A DNA stretch of 31,191 nucleotides from a virus. Its lineage: Duplodnaviria > Caudoviricetes. Numbering within the stretch: the stretch's first letter is position 1; the number at the start of each line of letters is the position of its first letter. The stretch covers positions 1 to 31,191 of the IMG/VR virus record IMGVR_UViG_3300012940_000076. One strand, given 5' to 3'. The position numbers and the translations under genes are program-made. The notes under the pieces were generated by a model, which had not been told where the DNA came from, searched no databases, and saw only the letters and a list, made by a program, of their open reading frames with translations. Shown here piece after piece: positions 10,600 to 17,731 of the stretch.

Positions 10600-12555
10600 A
10601 TGGCTATCGACCAGAGCAACCCGAACACGCGCCGTCTCGTCCGCTACTGGACTCGGGGTGAGGGGGCCGCGAAGATCCGGTGGGGAACCGACGGGTCCTT
10701 TGACCGGTGCGTCCGGCACCTGACCGGAAAGGTCCGCGACCCGAAGGGCCTGTGCGCGGAACTGCACAAGTCAGCCACCGGGGAATGGCCGGCTGAGAAG
10801 GGCGTCGAGTCGTCCATGGAGACGGAGACGTTCGAGGTGAGCGAGGCTGAGGCGCGGGCCGCTGTGCCGATGCAGCGGGTGATCTCGTGGCGCGGCCCGA
10901 TCGCCCCGCTCAACCGGCCCACCGGGGATCGGCGGGAGTTCGCCCCCGGGGCGTTGGGTCACCGGGACTTCCCGCTGCCCGCCATGTTCCAGTTCGTCAC
11001 CGGGGGGCAGGGGCACGCCAACGCGGTCACCGTTGCCACGCTCGACGGGTACGAGGAGCTGGGCACGGAGATCATCGGCTGGGGCCGCTTCCTGGACCCG
11101 CGCATCGTCCCCGAGGTTCCCCGCGCCATCTACCTGCTCAAGGAGGGCGTGGCGGGCCCGTCGGTGGACCTGGAGCCGGACCTGACCTACGAGATGGTGG
11201 CGACGGACGACAAGCCGCGCTTCCGGGTCACCAAGGGGACCATGGCGGGCCTGACATTCGTGTCGAAGCCCGCGTTCGCCAACCTCAAGATCACCGTCCA
11301 CGACGAGGAGGTCCAGTCGGTCCTCGCCTCGGCTGGCGTCGATCTGGAGTTCGAGGAGCTGGACCACACCGACCTGTTCGAGGAGCCGGGGCCGGGGCTG
11401 GCCGACTTCACCGTCAACTCCTCCTCCTGGTCCAAGATGCCCCTCGGCGACCGGGACCAGCCCTTCGACGCGGACGACGCCATCGCCCGGCTGGTCGAGG
11501 CGTCCGGCGGCAACCCGGAGGTGTTCGGCAAGGCGTTCCTGTGGCGGCAGTCCGACGGGGACCCCCGCAACAAGGCGTCGTACCGGCTGCCCATCGCCGA
11601 CGTGATCAACGGGAAGATGACCCTCGTCCCGCACGCCGTGTACGCGGCAGCCGCGATCCTGTCCGGAGCCCACGGCGGCCTGCCCAACGTGCCGGACAAC
11701 GAGAAGGAGCAGATCCGCAAGGTCATCACGGAGATTTACGACGTGCTCCGTGAGACGTTCGCCGACCCCCGCGTCATGCCCCCGTGGCAGCGCGGCGGGC
11801 GTCGCGGCGCTGAGGGAACGGGAGACGCTGGCATGAGCAAGAATGAGGCGGCCCTGACCGCCGCCGCAGCGGCCGGTTTCCGGCCCCCGGCGGCCTGGTT
11901 CCGCAACCCGGACCTCCAGGCCCCGACCGGGCTGCGGGTCACCGACGACGGCCGGGTCTACGGCCACCTGGCCTCCTGGGGCATCTGCCACACCGGCATC
12001 GGTAACCAGTGCGTCACCGCGCCGCACTCGGTCACGGACTACCGCTACTTCAAGGTGGGGACGGTGATCACCGACGATGGGCAGGAGCTGGCGGTCGGAA
12101 AGATCACCCTCGGGGGTGGTCACGCGGACCCTCAGTACGGCATCCGCCCGGCCCTGGAGCACTACGACGACGCCGGCACCGCCGTGGCCGCCGTCAACAT
12201 CGGCGAGGACGGGCACGGGATCTGGGTGGCCGGGGCTCTCCTTCCAGGAGTGGATGATCAGCGTATTGCGCAACTCCGTCTCTCGCCCCTGTCCGGGGAC
12301 TGGCGACGGGTCGATGGCAACCTCGAACTCATCGCCGCCCTCGCCGTCAACACCCCCGGTTTCCCGGTCCTGCGCGCATCCGCCGGGGAGGACATGACCC
12401 TGCTGGCCGCTGGCATGGTTCAGGACCGGGCGGAGATCCCCGTCCAGCGGACCGACCCGATGGTGAAGCTGCGCGACATCGACGCCTTCCTGGACGGGCA
12501 GTCCAGCCGGGAGCGTCGTGAACGTCTGCGCCGGATTCTGGAGGAGGAGAAGTAA
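10600..12555 (+). CDS. Capsid maturation protease, multidomain
   Basis: TGDRREF...GHANAVTV...GPSVDL...GLTFVSKPAF (HK97-type protease pattern) and C-terminal GRVYGHLASW..CH...HYD...GIWVAG...LSGDWR; located between MuF and capsid. Confidence 0.75.
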   Translation: MAIDQSNPNTRRLVRYWTRGEGAAKIRWGTDGSFDRCVRHLTGKVRDPKGLCAELHKSATGEWPAEKGVESSMETETFEVSEAEARAAVPMQRVISWRGPIAPLNRPTGDRREFAPGALGHRDFPLPAMFQFVTGGQGHANAVTVATLDGYEELGTEIIGWGRFLDPRIVPEVPRAIYLLKEGVAGPSVDLEPDLTYEMVATDDKPRFRVTKGTMAGLTFVSKPAFANLKITVHDEEVQSVLASAGVDLEFEELDHTDLFEEPGPGLADFTVNSSSWSKMPLGDRDQPFDADDAIARLVEASGGNPEVFGKAFLWRQSDGDPRNKASYRLPIADVINGKMTLVPHAVYAAAAILSGAHGGLPNVPDNEKEQIRKVITEIYDVLRETFADPRVMPPWQRGGRRGAEGTGDAGMSKNEAALTAAAAAGFRPPAAWFRNPDLQAPTGLRVTDDGRVYGHLASWGICHTGIGNQCVTAPHSVTDYRYFKVGTVITDDGQELAVGKITLGGGHADPQYGIRPALEHYDDAGTAVAAVNIGEDGHGIWVAGALLPGVDDQRIAQLRLSPLSGDWRRVDGNLELIAALAVNTPGFPVLRASAGEDMTLLAAGMVQDRAEIPVQRTDPMVKLRDIDAFLDGQSSRERRERLRRILEEEK

Positions 12556-12557
12556 CC

Positions 12558-12704
12558 GTGGCCTGCGGCTGCAACAAGAACAAGACGGTCTACATGCTCA
12601 CCGTGCCCGGCAAGGAGCCCGTGGAGTTCGATGACCGGCAAAAGGCGCTGACCGAGGCGCGCATCCAGGGCGGCACGATCACCACGAAGGTCGTTCCGAA
12701 GTAG
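12558..12704 (+). CDS. 48-aa MACGC-type small head-module protein
   Basis: Not in the track. GTG after GGAGGAG: MACGCNKNKTVYMLTVPGKEPVEFDDRQKALTEARIQGGTITTKVVPK; high GC3; ends before a terminator. Confidence 0.8.
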   Translation: MACGCNKNKTVYMLTVPGKEPVEFDDRQKALTEARIQGGTITTKVVPK

Positions 12705-12713
12705 CCCGGACGT

Positions 12714-12755
12714 GAAGAACCCCCAGGCCCCACCCCTGTGGCCTGGGGGTTCTTC
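12714..12755. terminator. Bidirectional intrinsic terminator
   Basis: Perfect 16-bp stem GAAGAACCCCCAGGCC/GGCCTGGGGGTTCTTC between convergent genes; a second hairpin GCATCCA/TGGATGC lies at 12758-12790. Confidence 0.85.
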
Positions 12756-12800
12756 GTGCATCCAGGCCCCTACCCCATAGGCGTGGATGCGGCGGAAGGT

Positions 12801-13121
12801 CTACTTGTCGGTGGCGAGAAGGTTGTCCCGGTAGAGGACGATTCGCCAGGTGTACCGGGCGGCCTCAGACATGACCGTCCAGTCCCACCCGTTGATGCCC
12901 GTGAAGCTGATCTGGGTGTTCACGTCCGTGTCCACGGTGTTGATGGTCCGGGAGTCGGGCAGGATCATGAAGGAGACTCCCTCGTCGGTGCTGAGCCAGT
13001 CCACCTCGCCCGGGTACTTCGACCCCAGGTCAATCTCCCACACGTGGAAGTTCGGGTGATCGATGTAGTGGATAACGTCGTGGACCTTGATCCGGCCCTG
13101 CACAACCTCGGCAAGTTTCAT
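12801..13121 (-). CDS. Hypothetical protein, 106 aa, acidic and beta-rich
   Basis: SD GGAGGAG, high GC3, own promoter and terminator; no family recognised. Confidence 0.8.
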   Translation of the reverse strand: MKLAEVVQGRIKVHDVIHYIDHPNFHVWEIDLGSKYPGEVDWLSTDEGVSFMILPDSRTINTVDTDVNTQISFTGINGWDWTVMSEAARYTWRIVLYRDNLLATDK

Positions 13122-13267
13122 GTCTACTCCTCCCCAGAAGTAGGAACCGGCGCTACAGACCCGAAGTCCACGCGCCGGTGGCTTGGAAGGTGGATCAGGG
13201 AGGGCCCCACCCCTCGGGGGGCCCTCCCCTTCTATCCCCCTGGACCGTCCGACTTGGCGTCTGACGT
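13122..13267 (-). promoter_or_regulatory. Structured 5' leader with SD-sequestering hairpin
   Basis: Four hairpins: CGUC-GAC/GUC-GACG; GGGAGGGCCCC/GGGGCCCUCCC; ACCGGCGC/GCGCCGGU; CUACUUCU-GGGG-AGGAGUAG over the SD. Confidence 0.65.
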
Positions 13268-13273
13268 GCCCCT

Positions 13274-13302
13274 AGCCTAGCAAACCTAGGTACGGGGTGC
13301 AA
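13274..13302 (-). promoter_or_regulatory. Sigma-A/HrdB-type promoter
   Basis: TTGCAC (13302-13297), 17 nt, TAGGCT (13279-13274). Confidence 0.7.
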
Positions 13303-13528
13303 TCACCAATTCCGCCTGGACCCGGACCTCATCCGGGCGGTCCGGCTTGACCTGGAACGAGAACGACCCTCCCGTCCGCGAGGCCCGCAGCACCTGGTTG
13401 TAGACCACGAGAGCCCGGTTGATGGTGTCGGTCAGGTTGTCACCCGTCTCGTTGGAGGCCTCGATCGCTGCCTCCAACGACTTGTCCGTCAGGAAGAGGG
13501 TGACCTGCGTCGGCTGCCCCGAAGTCAC
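13286..13528 (-). CDS. Putative ribbon-helix-helix (CopG-like) DNA-binding protein
   Basis: TQVTLFL strand followed by two helices ...TGDNLTDTINRAL; GTGA overlap with the LPXTG gene. Confidence 0.6.
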   Translation of the reverse strand: MTSGQPTQVTLFLTDKSLEAAIEASNETGDNLTDTINRALVVYNQVLRASRTGGSFSFQVKPDRPDEVRVQAELVIAPRT

Positions 13529-14514
13529 GCCTCGAACCGCCGCGAACGCAGCCGCGACAGGGCGATGCCGGCCAGGCCGATCACTACCAGCAGGCCGCCG
13601 ACCAGGAAGGCGCGGACAACCGGGCTACCGGTCACCGGCAGGGAGTCGGAGTTGTCGACCGGGATCGTCTCGTCCGCGCTCGGGGTCGTGTCCGGCTGCG
13701 TCGGAGCCACCGACGGGCTCGGCGAAGCCGAAGCGCTCGGGGTCACGCTCGGGGTCACGCTCGGCGACGGGCTCGGGGACTCATCCACCTCGCACTCCGC
13801 ACCCTGCTTCTTCGCCACCGGGTAGATCCAGGGCGTCCAGCCATCCGGCTTGAGGTACCCGTCCTTGAGTACCACGTCCACTTCGACCATGCCCTCGACG
13901 GCCGGCTTGATGTCGTACTTCTCGATCCCCTCGGCAAGCTGAGCCGGTTCCTCGACCTTGCCGAGTTCGTCGCAGGTCGGCGGGGTGTAGACCGGCGCGG
14001 GGATCGTCTCCAGCCGCTTCGTCTCGACGGCCAGGAAGTTGACCTTCTCCTCGCCGATGGTGAGGTCACTGATCTTCACCTCACCCTGCTGGCCGTTGTC
14101 GAACACGACGCCTGCGTAGGTGATCGTGCCACTGGTCGGGATGGTGAAGCGGACCACCCCATCGGGGCCGCCGCACTGGTTCGGGTTTCCGTCGAAGGAG
14201 TTGTAGACAGTTTCCGCGACCTGCACGAACACCCGGGGAGCGCCGCCGCCGCAGGTGACGCCCGCTCCCAGGTCCGGGGTGAAGGACACCTCAGTGCCGG
14301 CCTCCACGGTCATGCCGAGGTTCGCTGCCTCGACGGAGGTCATGCCGCCAGTAAGCCGGACCGTGTTCTCGTTCTCGATCGACGCGGCGTCGTTGACGGG
14401 GCTCCAGATCCGGTCGCCGGGATCGGCGGCGGCCGGGAGGCTGTAGCCGAGCGTCAGGGCTCCGAGGCCGAACGCTGCGGCGAATGCTGTGGTCTGTACG
14501 TTACGGATTTTCAT
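13525..14514 (-). CDS. Secreted LPXTG (LPVTG) cell-wall-anchored protein
   Basis: Signal peptide ending PAAA, beta-rich Cys-containing body, (SP/VTPS) linker, LPVTG, TM helix and RLRSRR tail. Confidence 0.88.
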   Translation of the reverse strand: MKIRNVQTTAFAAAFGLGALTLGYSLPAAADPGDRIWSPVNDAASIENENTVRLTGGMTSVEAANLGMTVEAGTEVSFTPDLGAGVTCGGGAPRVFVQVAETVYNSFDGNPNQCGGPDGVVRFTIPTSGTITYAGVVFDNGQQGEVKISDLTIGEEKVNFLAVETKRLETIPAPVYTPPTCDELGKVEEPAQLAEGIEKYDIKPAVEGMVEVDVVLKDGYLKPDGWTPWIYPVAKKQGAECEVDESPSPSPSVTPSVTPSASASPSPSVAPTQPDTTPSADETIPVDNSDSLPVTGSPVVRAFLVGGLLVVIGLAGIALSRLRSRRFEA

Positions 14515-14555
14515 TCATTCCCCTCCAGGATCTTGATGGGACACAACGAGGCCTC

Positions 14556-14583
14556 ACACTACAGGATGTTGGTGCAGGGTCAA
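14556..14583 (-). promoter_or_regulatory. Sigma-A-type promoter for the LPXTG-RHH operon
   Basis: TTGACC (14583-14578), 16 nt, TAGTGT (14561-14556). Confidence 0.6.
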
Positions 14584-14605
14584 GTAGCGTGGCGTGTCCT
14601 AGATG

Positions 14606-14904
14606 CACTGAGCCCCCCGGCGCGTCAGCGGGAGGGCTGGAATCCGGGGGGCCCAGTGTTTCCTGGGGAGGAAATCTATGGAAGTTTAACCCCAGTCCGA
14701 GGATCGGCCGTCGACACCCTGGGGTGCCGTCCCTCGGTCATCGCCCCTGGGGTACCCGGGCGACTCCCTGCTAGCAGGGGAGCTGGTGGTGTGGGGTGGA
14801 TGCGCGCCCCGGGAGTTGGCGCTCCCGGGGCGCTGCCGACGACTGTTGCAGCAGCGTCGGCCTTGCACCCATCCCCATCTGGCACGAAAGGAACCCCTTG
14901 GTGC
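14606..14904 (-). ncRNA. Candidate ~300-nt structured non-coding RNA
   Basis: Starts ~7 nt after a good promoter and consists of back-to-back hairpins plus a three-way junction, ending in a GC-rich hairpin (14606-14658). Key wobble pairs work only on the minus strand; overlapping ORFs have poor GC3. Confidence 0.65.
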
Positions 14905-14911
14905 GAAAACA

Positions 14912-14940
14912 ACTGTAGAGGGTGGCGGAGCGAAATGCAA
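14912..14940 (-). promoter_or_regulatory. Sigma-A-type promoter for the candidate ncRNA
   Basis: TTGCAT (14940-14935), 17 nt, TACAGT (14917-14912). Confidence 0.72.
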
Positions 14941-14942
14941 CC

Positions 14943-14960
14943 CCGGACAAAACCGGACAA
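14943..14960. repeat. Direct repeat CCGGACAA x2 with 10-bp period (possible operator)
   Basis: Copies at 14943-14950 and 14953-14960, between divergent promoters. Confidence 0.5.
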
Positions 14961-14966
14961 CCGATC

Positions 14967-15008
14967 TTGTTGGGACTACTTGACATAAAGTACGCTCTGC
15001 ACTAGCTC
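14967..15008 (+). promoter_or_regulatory. Probable capsid-operon promoter
   Basis: Either TTGTTG-18-TACGCT (14967-14996) or TTGACA-17-TAGCTC (14980-15008); cannot choose from sequence alone. Confidence 0.5.
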
Positions 15009-15076
15009 GCACGATGGCTGAGGGCCTGTCGAGGAAGTTGTGACCATTTCCGACTTGCCCGAAAGGCCATCAAGTC

Positions 15077-16831
15077 ATGGACTTCACCCAGGATCTCAGC
15101 AACTTCACCGTTGCTGGCATCACTGAGCTGCGCAACGCCGCCGTCCGGCACCTCGCAAGCCTGCGGGCCTCCGTCGAGAACCCGGAGACTGTCTCCGACG
15201 ACCTCCTCGCCGAGATGGAGGAGGCCAAGGAGTTCATCGTCCGGGCCGACGAGGAGATCGCCCAGCGGACCGAGAAGGTCAACAAGCTCGCCGCGTTCGA
15301 GGGCATCGAGGAGCTTTCGGTCGAGACCGCCGCCACCGAGTCGACCACCACCACCGAGGTTGTGGAGGGTGAGGTGGTTGAGGGCACCGACAAGGCTGCC
15401 GTCGTCGCCTCCACCGTCGAGCCGGGCACCCAGGTCGTCTCCGCCGAGGTCTCCAAGGGCGGTGAGGGAATGCGGCGCTCCGTCCAGGTCGCCGACGTTG
15501 CCGGCAGCACCGACCCGAACGAGTTCCCGGAGGAGAAGACCTTCACCATCCGGGCGGCTGCGGACCTGCCGACCTTCACCTCCGGCCAGGAGCTGGAGTG
15601 GGATGAGCTGGGCAAGGCCTTCGAGGCGCGTGCCCGCACCTACGGCAGCGGCCCCCGCCAGGTCGGCGGGCGCGGCGGCCGGCTCCAGCACGGCTTCGCC
15701 CTCATCGAGCGGCAGTTCCCCGAGGAGCAGCAGCTCCTTGACAACGACGGCGAGATGAGCCTCTACACGAAGCTCACCGACCTCCAGAAGAAGGCGGCCA
15801 ACGAGGTCACCCAGCACAACGCCCTCGTCGCGGCGGCCGGCTGGTGTGCCCCGTCCGAGACGGTGTACTCCACCGTCAACCCGGTCACCACCGAGGGCCT
15901 GTTCAACCTCCCCGAGGTTGTGGCCCGCCGGGGCGGCATCCGGCACAACCAGGGCATCGACTGGTCGAAGTTCTTCGGCGGCACCTACCCGGCGCTGGAC
16001 ACCAACGTCCCGGGTATGACCCTGCTGACCGAGGCGCAGGTCATCGCCGACACCGCCAAGACGTGCCTGGAGATCGACTGCCCGCCGTTCATCGATGAGC
16101 GGCTGAACGTCGCGGCGCTGTGCCTCACCGGCTCGCTGCTCCAGAACCGGGGCTACCCGGAGTACGTCGCCGAGTTCACCCGGGGCTCCCTGGCCGCGTT
16201 CCAGCACCTCGTGAACCGGGAGATCATCGACATCGTTGAGGACGGCTCCACCGCCGTCGCTCTCACCCTGACCGAGGCGACCACTGCCCCGGCCCTGTCC
16301 ACCCTGATGACGGCGGTCGAGTTCGCGGCCACCGACATCCGGTACCGGCTGCGCTCCGGCAACGCCCCGATCGAGGTCACCCTGCCGGACTGGGTTCGGC
16401 TGGTCCTGCGCGCCGACTACATGCGGCGCAACGCGGCGGCCAACGATGACCTGGCCGACGCGGCGATCAACGAGATGTTCGCCCGGCGCAACGTGCGGGT
16501 CCAGTACGTCATGGACTGGCAGGACGCCTTCTCCGGCGTCGCGGGCGGCTTCGGTGCCCTCACCGCGCCGACGGACATCCCGAACACCACGGTCAAGTTC
16601 CTCGCCTACCCGGCGGGCACCTGGCTCCTGGCCCGCCAGGACGTGATCCGGCTCGACACCGTGTACGACTCGGTGAACCTCCAGCAGAACCAGGTCACCC
16701 AGTTGTTCATGGAGGACGGCTACCTGCCGATGCGGATGGGCCCGCTGTCGCGGGTCTACTCGACCCCGATCTGCGCGAACGGTGTCACCGCCTCGACCGC
16801 CGTCATCCAGGACTGCGCGGTCACCCCGTAA
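15077..16831 (+). CDS. Major capsid protein (hexamer-type) with N-terminal scaffold-like extension
   Basis: 584 aa; acidic coiled-coil N-terminus; ALVAAAGWCAPSET, LPEV..RGGI, KTCLEIDCP, LDTVYDS, FMEDG resemble cluster-B-like capsids; very high GC3. Confidence 0.88.
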   Translation: MDFTQDLSNFTVAGITELRNAAVRHLASLRASVENPETVSDDLLAEMEEAKEFIVRADEEIAQRTEKVNKLAAFEGIEELSVETAATESTTTTEVVEGEVVEGTDKAAVVASTVEPGTQVVSAEVSKGGEGMRRSVQVADVAGSTDPNEFPEEKTFTIRAAADLPTFTSGQELEWDELGKAFEARARTYGSGPRQVGGRGGRLQHGFALIERQFPEEQQLLDNDGEMSLYTKLTDLQKKAANEVTQHNALVAAAGWCAPSETVYSTVNPVTTEGLFNLPEVVARRGGIRHNQGIDWSKFFGGTYPALDTNVPGMTLLTEAQVIADTAKTCLEIDCPPFIDERLNVAALCLTGSLLQNRGYPEYVAEFTRGSLAAFQHLVNREIIDIVEDGSTAVALTLTEATTAPALSTLMTAVEFAATDIRYRLRSGNAPIEVTLPDWVRLVLRADYMRRNAAANDDLADAAINEMFARRNVRVQYVMDWQDAFSGVAGGFGALTAPTDIPNTTVKFLAYPAGTWLLARQDVIRLDTVYDSVNLQQNQVTQLFMEDGYLPMRMGPLSRVYSTPICANGVTASTAVIQDCAVTP

Positions 16832-16843
16832 CCCCTTCCTGAT

Positions 16844-16873
16844 CAGGGCCCGGTTCTTCGGAGCCGGGCCCTG
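16844..16873 (+). terminator. Stable C(UUCG)G hairpin after the capsid gene (partial terminator or mRNA stabiliser)
   Basis: 13-bp stem CAGGGCCCGGTTC/GAGCCGGGCCCTG with TTCG loop and no U tract. Confidence 0.7.
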
Positions 16874-16906
16874 GTCCAGGACCACTAGTCCAAGGAAGGA
16901 GGAGAC

Positions 16907-17731
16907 ATGGCGGTCCTCGCTAACACCCGGCTGTACGTGCCACGCCCGGGGGCGCTGGTCAACCGGTACGGCCTGTTCGACGTGGCTAACGGCCCGCTCG
17001 ATCTGGTTCCTCACGCCCGCTCCGGTGGCCTGGAGTACCAGAGCGCGGTGTGCGCGCTGCCGACCGGCTACGAGATTGAGTGCCCGGCCCCGGCGGAGGC
17101 GAAGTCGTTCACGTCCGGCGGGGCGTCGCTGATCACGGCGGACCCGTTCGTGGTCCGCTCCGATCTGGAGTGTGCCCCGGTCGGCCTGGACGACGCGCAG
17201 CTTCGCCAATGGCTGCTGGAACGGTTGCGGGCCGGCGAGCAGGCCACGGTGGAGCGGATCTTCTCGGAGGGCACCTTCGGGGCCAACCCGAGCCTCCAGG
17301 GGGCCACCGACCTGGGCACGGCGGTGTCCGTGGCGCAGGCCATCGGTGACCTGGAGGCGTGGCTGTACGCCCGGTACGGGCTGCCGGGGGTCCTGCACGT
17401 CCCGGCGACCGCTGCCGCGCACTTCGTCAACGGTGGCGGCCTGGTCCGGGATGGCCGGCTGTGGAAGACCGCCATGGGTACGGCGATCAGCTTCGGCAAC
17501 TACGCCAACACCAGCCCGGCCGGTGTGGCGGCAGCGGCTGGTCACGCCTGGGTCTACATCACCGGCCAGGTGACGGTGTGGCGGGCCCCCGACTCGGACG
17601 TGTTCACCACGCCCCTGCCGGCGGCCCTGGATCGCACCACCAATCAGGTCTACGGCCAGGCGGAGCGGGAGTACGCGGTGTCGTACGAGTGCTTCGCGGC
17701 GGCCATCGACGCAACCCTGTTCACCCTGTAA
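16907..17731 (+). CDS. Putative major capsid pentamer protein
   Basis: 274 aa directly after the hexamer-type capsid; RYGLF, DPFVV...C, GVLH, AEREYAV; SD AGGAGG. Matches the Rosebush-type two-protein arrangement as recalled. Confidence 0.7.
   Translation: MAVLANTRLYVPRPGALVNRYGLFDVANGPLDLVPHARSGGLEYQSAVCALPTGYEIECPAPAEAKSFTSGGASLITADPFVVRSDLECAPVGLDDAQLRQWLLERLRAGEQATVERIFSEGTFGANPSLQGATDLGTAVSVAQAIGDLEAWLYARYGLPGVLHVPATAAAHFVNGGGLVRDGRLWKTAMGTAISFGNYANTSPAGVAAAAGHAWVYITGQVTVWRAPDSDVFTTPLPAALDRTTNQVYGQAEREYAVSYECFAAAIDATLFTL

Follow-up and report, generated by a model that had tools for sequence, protein, structure and literature searches.

The stretch of DNA analysed here (the window) is positions 1 to 31,191 of the IMG/VR record IMGVR_UViG_3300012940_000076, from a soil phage that was found in soil sequencing runs. 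No RNA sequencing run was listed among the runs containing this DNA. The record's own completeness estimate in IMG/VR is 53%. The genes of the window form a terminase-portal-protease-capsid set of the type seen in cluster-B-like actinophages. Between the protease gene and the major capsid gene (15077..16831, plus strand, PHROG 777), we found a leftward cassette composed of a promoter-like site (P1), a candidate structured RNA or leader of about 300 nt (14606..14904, minus strand), a second promoter-like site (P2) and three genes. The structured element adjoins the major capsid gene, which is divergent from P1. The first gene of the cassette (13525..14514, minus strand) encodes a 329-aa protein with a signal-peptide-like start and an LPVTG motif, which is likely to be sortase-anchored (the LPXTG protein). 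The start of the second gene overlaps the stop codon of the first, and its 80-aa product (13286..13528, minus strand; feature score 0.92, RHH clusters) is likely a ribbon-helix-helix (RHH) protein. The third is an orphan gene of 106 aa (12801..13121, minus strand) with a gene-like codon pattern.

Relatives of the LPXTG gene occur in five Micromonospora genomes, with DNA 68-72% identical over the best stretches, so Micromonospora is the likely host genus. None of these five loci had this structured RNA upstream of the chromosomal LPXTG homologue, and a leader common to the LPXTG gene family was rejected because the chromosomal copies lack the RNA. Members of this LPXTG protein family were also seen on contigs of phage size, and the family has relatives on the chromosomes of both Micromonospora and Actinoplanes. 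Superinfection exclusion would be our guess at the role of the protein in the phage. The 106-aa gene has a structured leader of its own (13140-13285, minus strand), comprising a UUCG-capped hairpin and a hairpin burying the Shine-Dalgarno sequence (SD); the stretch 13110-13290 folds with a z-score of -3.7.

A first-pass annotation, made from the letters without database searches, had proposed that the element is a novel structured phage RNA and had suggested comparing its folding energy with that of shuffled sequences. This comparison agreed with a structured RNA: on the minus strand a 311-nt stretch folded at -171.5 kcal/mol (z -6.39), and 0 of 100 shuffles were as stable. The element ranked first in excess folding energy among 103 non-overlapping 300-nt segments (five shuffles each, on a grid aligned to the element, which favours it), at -35.8 against a mean over the segments of -2.9 (SD 7.2). 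In 150-nt segments it ranked 4 and 8 of 207. The plus strand of the element folded with a z-score of -5.08. G-U pairs did not show a preference for the minus strand, either among all pairs (6/102 vs 9/110) or among confident pairs (3/74 vs 5/81), and the strand assignment therefore rests on the promoter. None of seven overlapping frames has codons patterned like those of genes, the second-position GC being 0.61-0.78 vs 0.36-0.51 in true genes, and the stretch looks non-coding. The structured element is real and undescribed. Other intergenic stretches of the phage were found to fold equally well (2460-2675, z -6.76; 12695-12790, z -6.28). The former, on the minus strand ahead of a D5-type primase-helicase gene, has one hairpin resembling an arm of the junction described below (arm B) and had no credible Rfam match.

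All the hairpins and the three-way junction listed in the first-pass annotation were recovered in the predicted fold, hairpin H6 as one of two states. Read along the minus strand, the fold opens with the 5' hairpin H1 (14882..14904; pair probability 0.97-0.98), in which AAGGGG and the GTG belonging to a 69-codon ORF are buried. The three-way junction (14792..14877) consists of a closing stem and two predicted arms, A (14835-14861) and B (14804-14833), with arm lengths of 7 bp and 12 bp, and contains letters like those of the twister-sister ribozyme. It is followed by the predicted hairpins H3 (14766-14779), H4 (14742-14762; kept, and collinear, in a diverged relative), H5 (14697-14737) and H6 (14663-14695), and by the terminal 15-bp stem H7 (14606..14658; probability 1.0), which has an inner hairpin and a C-rich loop. 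Arm B resembles intergenic hairpins of host-family genomes in 8 of the 15 matches fetched, three of them right after stop codons.

The computed fold has two competing states. The strand 14783..14790 (minus strand) can pair with 14689-14695, enclosing H3-H5 in one domain. In the 300-nt RNA, H6 had a probability of 0.67, vs 0.30 for this switch helix. The probability of the switch helix was 0.97-0.99 in transcripts reading through to 14480-14510. In the predicted fold of the read-through to 14490 (switch helix 0.97), a C-rich segment of the RNA, the seed, lies on the SD of the LPXTG gene. With the transcript extended to 14420, this cis pairing disappeared, the switch helix was at 0.27 and H6 was back at 0.69. 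The predicted accessibility of the LPXTG SD was 0.24 in the mRNA from P2 vs 0.13 with the P1 leader.

There is no U-tract after the H7 stem, as there would be in a canonical intrinsic terminator. According to the available text of one study, mycobacterial RNA polymerase needs a U-tract and does not stop at hairpins without one (PMC3993855). A discrete 3' end at 300 nt is therefore not established, and a 300-nt species would have to arise by trimming or through Rho. The stretch may just as well form the leader on the mRNA of the LPXTG gene and not a stand-alone 300-nt transcript. H7 and a hairpin at 12713-12755 have an 11-nt foot in common. The pattern GTGCATCYAGG, picked after it had been seen, occurs twice (0.04 expected), at 12756-12766 (plus strand) and 14598-14608 (minus strand). 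Both copies are at the foot of a long hairpin and are inverted around the LPXTG-RHH-106-aa cassette. The pair could be read as a shared terminator or processing signal, or as marking both ends of a segment that was inserted or can invert.

P1 (14912..14940, minus strand; predicted start near 14905) has the boxes that the first-pass annotation had pointed out, TTGCAT (14940-14935) and TACAGT (14917-14912), separated by a 17-nt spacer. It matches the sigma-70 consensus at 7/12 positions only, and a strict promoter scan of 12000-17000 returned no promoter-like site, P1 included. A leftward TTG-N16-18-TANNNT was present no more than 320 nt from the capsid start at 14 loci out of 113 distinct ones, the window's own record among them, vs 6.8 expected. 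The TTGCAT form was seen in the window and in three relatives (L001, L003 and L163), where TTGCAT-18-TANNNT occupies the same slot. In these three the slot also holds tRNA calls (22, 6 and 4, respectively), and tRNAs occupy it in 7 of the 113 relative loci. Given the TTGCAT-form sites and tRNA arrays of the three relatives, P1 is probably real, in line with the earlier proposal that the element has its own promoter, and the slot appears to house stable RNA genes in relatives. P2 (CTAC-TTGACC-16-TAGTGT; 14556..14587, minus strand) is a promoter-like site between the RNA and the LPXTG gene. For its CTACTTGAC, a pattern chosen after it had been seen, the one other copy lies upstream of the capsid gene (2 copies vs 0.07 expected).

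Several further features were observed in this slot. The tRNA arrays of L001 (301-3280, minus strand) and L003 (2213-3381, minus strand) lie between the protease and capsid genes, and each begins with a further promoter-like site together with a small hairpin of H7-like outline. In L163 (1017-1892, minus strand), YrlA-like RNAs that score 41, 36 and 27 bits, below the cut-off of 69, form an array interspersed with tRNAs, with a leader motif repeated five times and a P1-type promoter in front. The gene after this array was read by eye as Ro60, which Pfam did not confirm (no hit in the first 225 aa). A motif upstream of the capsid start (~15008-15030, plus strand), common to 8 of the 113 loci including the window's own, is a possible late-gene operator or leader. 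In L288, repeated near-perfect palindromes ~200-340 nt ahead of where the capsid gene is estimated to start give the strongest folding signal among the 113 relatives and look like iterated DNA sites, not RNA.

We compared the element with known RNA families. It had no Rfam match at gathering level and no ARAGORN call. Among the 10 Rfam matches with E<=10 in 14400-15100, none was to tRNA, tmRNA, Ms1, 6S, SRP, RNase P or T-box. The C4 family (RF01695) gave no match, and c4-a1b1 scored 13 bits, vs a cut-off of 46.7, elsewhere in the stretch. YrlA, or Y RNA (RF02553), is defined by a tRNA-like domain and a size of 80-130 nt in the available text of PMC4201824; it was rejected for the element, with no matches at E<=10 and no ARAGORN call. 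No Ro60 (TROVE) gene was found in the window, from a record that is 53% complete. A link to the repeat motif of L163 was also rejected, as a profile of the L163 repeats scored the element at 1.1 bits.

The first-pass annotation had recognised no ribozyme, tRNA or tmRNA in the element. This held as far as membership is concerned, but a sub-threshold match to the twister-sister ribozyme (RF02681) at 14789-14873 needed testing (25.6 bits, E 0.0034; cut-off 34 bits). The match has the invariant 11-nt 5' strand and 8 of the 9 letters of the 3' strand; the 5' strand of loop L1 and P2 of the ribozyme (GCAAG-GCC) is present. As a comparison we used 39 distinct segments with the same pattern, drawn from 124 IMG/VR loci (9 of 64 parts scanned). 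In the cleavage strand GCUCAU the window has G in place of a U that is found in 38 of the 39 pattern matches from phage contigs and that, in the available text of PMC11620745, forms a Watson-Crick pair in a base triple of the TS-like model. The ribozyme hairpin P4 with GGUGCAAG between P3 and P5, present in 37/39 segments, is absent in the window, whose would-be P4 has 3 bp and a 3-nt loop. Ribozyme stem P1 is closed by C-G in 37/39 segments; the window's would begin U-C. Forcing the ribozyme fold costs 23.6 kcal/mol, vs a median of 2.6 and a maximum of 6.4 in 37 genuine examples, and the probability of ribozyme stem P2 in the window is 0.0. Minimal TS-like ribozymes can dispense with L4 and require two stems and an intact loop, as described in the part of PMC11620745 available. 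The other structured region (2460-2675) reached an E-value of 0.0045 to an unrelated family, so such E-values come easily here. With the score below threshold and the fold cost, L4, P1 closure and U all wanting, membership was rejected. In IMG/VR contigs (L007-L125) we observed 37 twister-sister ribozymes that are complete and distinct; they lie between small genes, and a contig often has several.

A full homologue was found in none of the collections searched (phage, plasmid, IMG/VR and host-family genomes), and neither the surroundings of ~160 capsid relatives nor the genomes of 401 host-family members yielded one. Of the capsid relatives, 29 are 56-76% identical. The 50,697 phage records had no blastn match to the element, and blastn against plasmids gave two short chance-level hits only. 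A DNA search of the 401 host-family genomes returned 16 short matches, none over ~70 nt, and a similar search of four virus records returned no usable homologue. Six DNA patterns in IMG/VR gave no homologue: some had 0 hits, 6 hits could not be aligned, none of the 16 hits of one pattern matched the 5' model beyond E 0.028, and the 124 loci of another (9 of 64 parts) were true twister-sisters and chance matches. The best E-value of blastn and nhmmer over 163 capsid-relative loci was 0.031. Two covariance models, each built from a single sequence and weak by construction, reached at best E 0.053 and 1.9 outside the window over 85 and 83 sources. They gave one unconvincing hit (E 0.042) over 21 whole virus records and no homologue over the five Micromonospora loci, and the 3' model had 0 matches in 151 host-family genomes. 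We found no description of this RNA in the literature, although it may be among the 10,000 viral candidate RNAs of PMC10690425; the available text of the Minerva preprint says nothing about actinophages.

One diverged relative was partly seen, in contigs of two runs (X2/X3) from two studies, as records of 836 nt and 294 nt. It aligns over 14534-14677 with 18 differences and 14 gap letters, skips 14678-14741, where by arithmetic it carries ~103 other bases, and matches again over H4 in 21 letters, on a short and so weaker side. The point of divergence is exactly the ATG on the plus strand of the seed. The relative keeps 14629-14677, H7 and H4. In the inner hairpin of H7, read by hand, three pairs are kept, a C-G pair is changed to U-A and one pair is gained; the outer stem has two changes, the partners of both being unlisted, and the loop is C-rich still, with its U lost. 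The -35 box of P2 is unchanged and two spacer bases are changed. The next gene has a similar start, ATG AAG ATC. Its SD is changed yet CCUGG is present, and it pairs with the window's seed in 12 pairs and one bulge. The sequence 5' of H4 differs, and a stop codon there interrupts the reading frame corresponding to the 69-codon ORF (read by hand). The seed-containing part of the alignment has at most four differences, whose positions are unlisted, as are the differences near the alignment ends, where seed-target covariation could not be read. In this one relative, the 3' modules are thus kept and the internal ORF is broken. Together with a GC content by codon position unlike that of genes, the stop agrees with the earlier expectation that the internal GTG ORF is not translated.

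The seed (14661..14680, minus strand) is antisense to an extended SD (14661-14673) and has a CAU (14678-14680) five bases beyond that can reach start codons. Its predicted targets are the SD regions of the LPXTG gene (14518..14530, minus strand; 12/13 pairs) and of the 106-aa gene (13127..13139, minus strand; 13/13 pairs including G-U), the latter inside its own hairpin with a GGGG loop. These are both of the cassette genes with their own ribosome-binding site; the start of the remaining gene overlaps the upstream stop. When the seed was searched against the whole window, the SD of the 106-aa gene was the best of 1640 non-self sites (-24.6 kcal/mol) and that of the LPXTG gene was the 15th. Among 37 candidate gene starts, the two targets ranked 1 and 3, rank 2 being an internal ATG. 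In nulls that were all designed after the match had been noticed, both energies were reached in 8 of 20000 cases with the anti-SD core fixed and the flanks random, and the single-target energies in 12 and 185 of 20000 with GGAGG fixed and the target flanks shuffled. The first-pass annotation had likened C/U-rich loops of the RNA to anti-SD sRNAs; this holds for the UUCCU segment, which has specific partners in the cassette, and fails for CCUCCC in the H7 loop, where the U is not kept in the relative. A small unlisted gene was observed after the protease gene (~12535-12700, plus strand); its SD region comes third among the non-self sites that pair with the seed (-22.0), and L137 and L216-L218 contain similar short ORFs rich in Cys.

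The origin of the complementarity and the state of the seed bear on how it should be read. CTGGRGRGGA occurs three times in the window (0.57 expected), twice in the sense direction before the target genes and once antisense in the RNA. The antisense copy (14663-14672) is away from a gene start, and on its own strand it precedes only a three-codon ORF. The plus strand of the seed reads as an SD followed by ATG GAA GTT TAA, with spacing like that of true genes, and 7 of the 9 codon bases are like the first codons of the 106-aa gene. An inverted copy of a gene start would therefore explain the complementarity without selection. The unpaired probability of the seed is 0.32-0.73, with 0.32 for CCCC, i.e., it is half buried, and SD pairing does not require the ~220 of 300 nt that are outside the seed and H7. 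Whole-molecule co-folding with long leaders as targets gave -4.8 and -5.7 kcal/mol. With 70-nt target segments the values were -9.0 and -6.0, vs a range of 1.5 to -13.3 over 27 start segments, among which whole-molecule co-folding does not put the two targets first.

We suggest, at a probability of about 0.4, that the element is a leader or antisense RNA that would repress translation of the leftward cassette next to it. RNA made from P1 would damp translation of the cassette, its C-rich seed pairing with the extended SD regions of the LPXTG and 106-aa genes. In one state, the CCCCAG of the seed would be held in H6. In the other, strand 14783-14790 would take the 5' arm of H6, freeing the seed. 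Because H7 lacks a U-tract, P1 transcripts would probably extend into the LPXTG gene, with silencing in cis; those from P2 would not carry the leader. If trimmed at its 3' end and stopped at H7, a 300-nt form could act on both genes in trans. The complementarity, the non-coding character and the 3' modules kept in one relative are observed, and the two-state fold is computed; that P1 is transcribed, that the seed pairs in vivo and that translation is repressed are what we infer. More doubtful is a two-state riboregulator of a new family that would gate the surface-protein cassette both in cis and in trans, which we regard as quite unlikely. Its 5' junction or H3-H5 domain would sense a protein, metabolite or RNA, and sensing would flip the switch strand, hiding or freeing the antisense copy of the extended SD.

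Among known systems, the arrangement most resembles the start-associated sequences (SAS) of cluster K mycobacteriophages with one inverted copy. The available text of PMC3203893 describes a single inverted SAS in four phages and leaves undecided whether RNA or protein binds the SAS sites. In common with these phages (PMC3203893), the window has a phage-specific extended SD before non-structural genes and one inverted copy away from gene starts. However, the cluster K motif described there is a 13-bp motif with 11-19 copies; here the motif is different and has two sense copies in a 53%-complete record, there are no 17-bp inverted repeats, and the inverted copy is part of a 300-nt fold that has a promoter-like site of its own in front. 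The element is also like RsaE-type sRNAs of Firmicutes in that a UCCC-type motif is predicted to lie over target ribosome-binding sites (PMC2790875). In the account given there, the RsaE motif is unpaired, conserved and tested, whereas here it is half buried and phage-encoded, with adjacent phage genes as predicted targets. The element has no Rfam match to such RNAs. The C4 RNA of phage P1 reportedly works by pairing. Like this antisense RNA, as presented in the available text of PMC8198154, the element would be a phage RNA heading an operon, and repression of the downstream genes by pairing, found for C4, is proposed here. It is three to four times longer than C4 RNA, does not match RF01695 and has no processing signal that we could see. 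According to the available part of PMC5712189, cluster A mycobacteriophages make abundant non-coding RNAs from Pleft, with no mechanism reported there. The element shares with these several hundred non-coding bases behind a phage promoter and a poorly conserved sequence (PMC5712189). Unlike them, it has no sequence match in 50,697 phage records, occupies another genome position and is a predicted transcript. The likeness to twister-sister consists of catalytic internal-loop letters in the right order with one change (as compared with the available text of PMC11620745), but the predicted fold excludes the catalytic loop, and L4 and the P1 closure are absent. The element would thus work like C-rich anti-SD sRNAs or P1 C4 RNA, yet it is in neither family. 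The novelty claimed in the first-pass annotation survives for the RNA itself, which has no Rfam match above cut-off, and not for the mechanism, which would be of a known kind. Nothing found here points to the protein sponge or anti-defence RNA that it offered as roles, or to a stand-alone transcript of 300 nt.

Two other readings put less weight on pairing. The element might be a stable RNA working via its folded domains, as a protein decoy or scaffold, with the SD complementarity a by-product of the inverted gene-start copy. This is somewhat unlikely. It would account for the ~220 of 300 nt that SD pairing does not need and for co-folding that does not single out the two targets, and it fits the stable RNAs of the slot in relatives (tRNAs in 7/113 loci, YrlA-like RNAs in L163) and the abundant non-coding RNAs of unexplained role in actinophages, as far as the available texts of PMC5712189 and PMC10986025 go. 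However, the relative differs in the 5' and middle domains while keeping the seed, H4 and H7, and we saw no loop motif repeated in the manner of a known sponge. It is rather less probable that the element is a stack of terminator-like or stabilising hairpins insulating the capsid promoter and the leftward cassette, with any RNA as a by-product. The likeness of arm B to host intergenic hairpins (8/15 fetched matches from 401 genomes, three after stop codons), the equally good folding of 2460-2675 (z -6.76) and 12695-12790 (z -6.28), the 11-nt foot common to H7 and hairpin 12713-12755, and the proposal of hairpin clusters as terminators in the available text of PMC8355165 all favour such a stack. 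But it follows a promoter, not a stop codon, mycobacterial polymerase is described as passing hairpins without U-tracts (PMC3993855, available text), and a nested junction and two-state switch exceed what a terminator needs.

The remaining explanations concern the strand, the junction or the ORF. It is improbable that the plus strand carries the functional element, be it a three-codon mini-ORF whose SD is sequestered or a small-gene remnant, in late read-through. The SD-to-ATG spacing is as in true genes, the relative diverges exactly at the ATG and the plus strand folds well (z -5.08), but no upstream plus-strand promoter was seen in the strict scan or by eye, and the mini-ORF is separated from the late operon by the entire leftward cassette and a strong hairpin (12713-12755). 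We consider it very improbable that the junction is a twister-sister ribozyme, intact or decayed: although the RF02681 hit (25.6 bits, E 0.0034) has most catalytic-loop letters in place and twister-sisters are common in phage contigs, it is below the 34-bit cut-off, the fold would cost 23.6 kcal/mol with ribozyme P2 at probability 0.0, L4 is missing, P1 is unclosed and the cleavage-strand U is G, and 2460-2675 gets E 0.0045 to an unrelated family. We give hardly any credence to an mRNA for the 69-codon GTG ORF (14885-14676) or to a Y-RNA relative. For the ORF, AAGGGG lies 8 nt before the GTG, but the GC content by codon position is 0.77/0.72/0.61, vs ~0.65/0.45/0.9 in true genes, and the relative has the in-frame stop. 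The Y-RNA reading draws on the YrlA-like RNAs behind a P1-type promoter in L163, but YrlA gave no match up to E 10, the window has no TROVE gene and the L163-repeat profile scores only 1.1 bits.

If only the rival explanations were true, the element would be one more structured phage intergenic region. The two-state riboregulator, if real, would be the RNA partner left open for the SAS sites of cluster K. Very little is known of regulatory RNAs in actinophages, and this element provides a concrete case that can be synthesised, with named targets and a predicted switch. If a translation-repressing leader or antisense RNA is the right reading, it would show how a phage times a host-derived, cell-wall-anchored protein.
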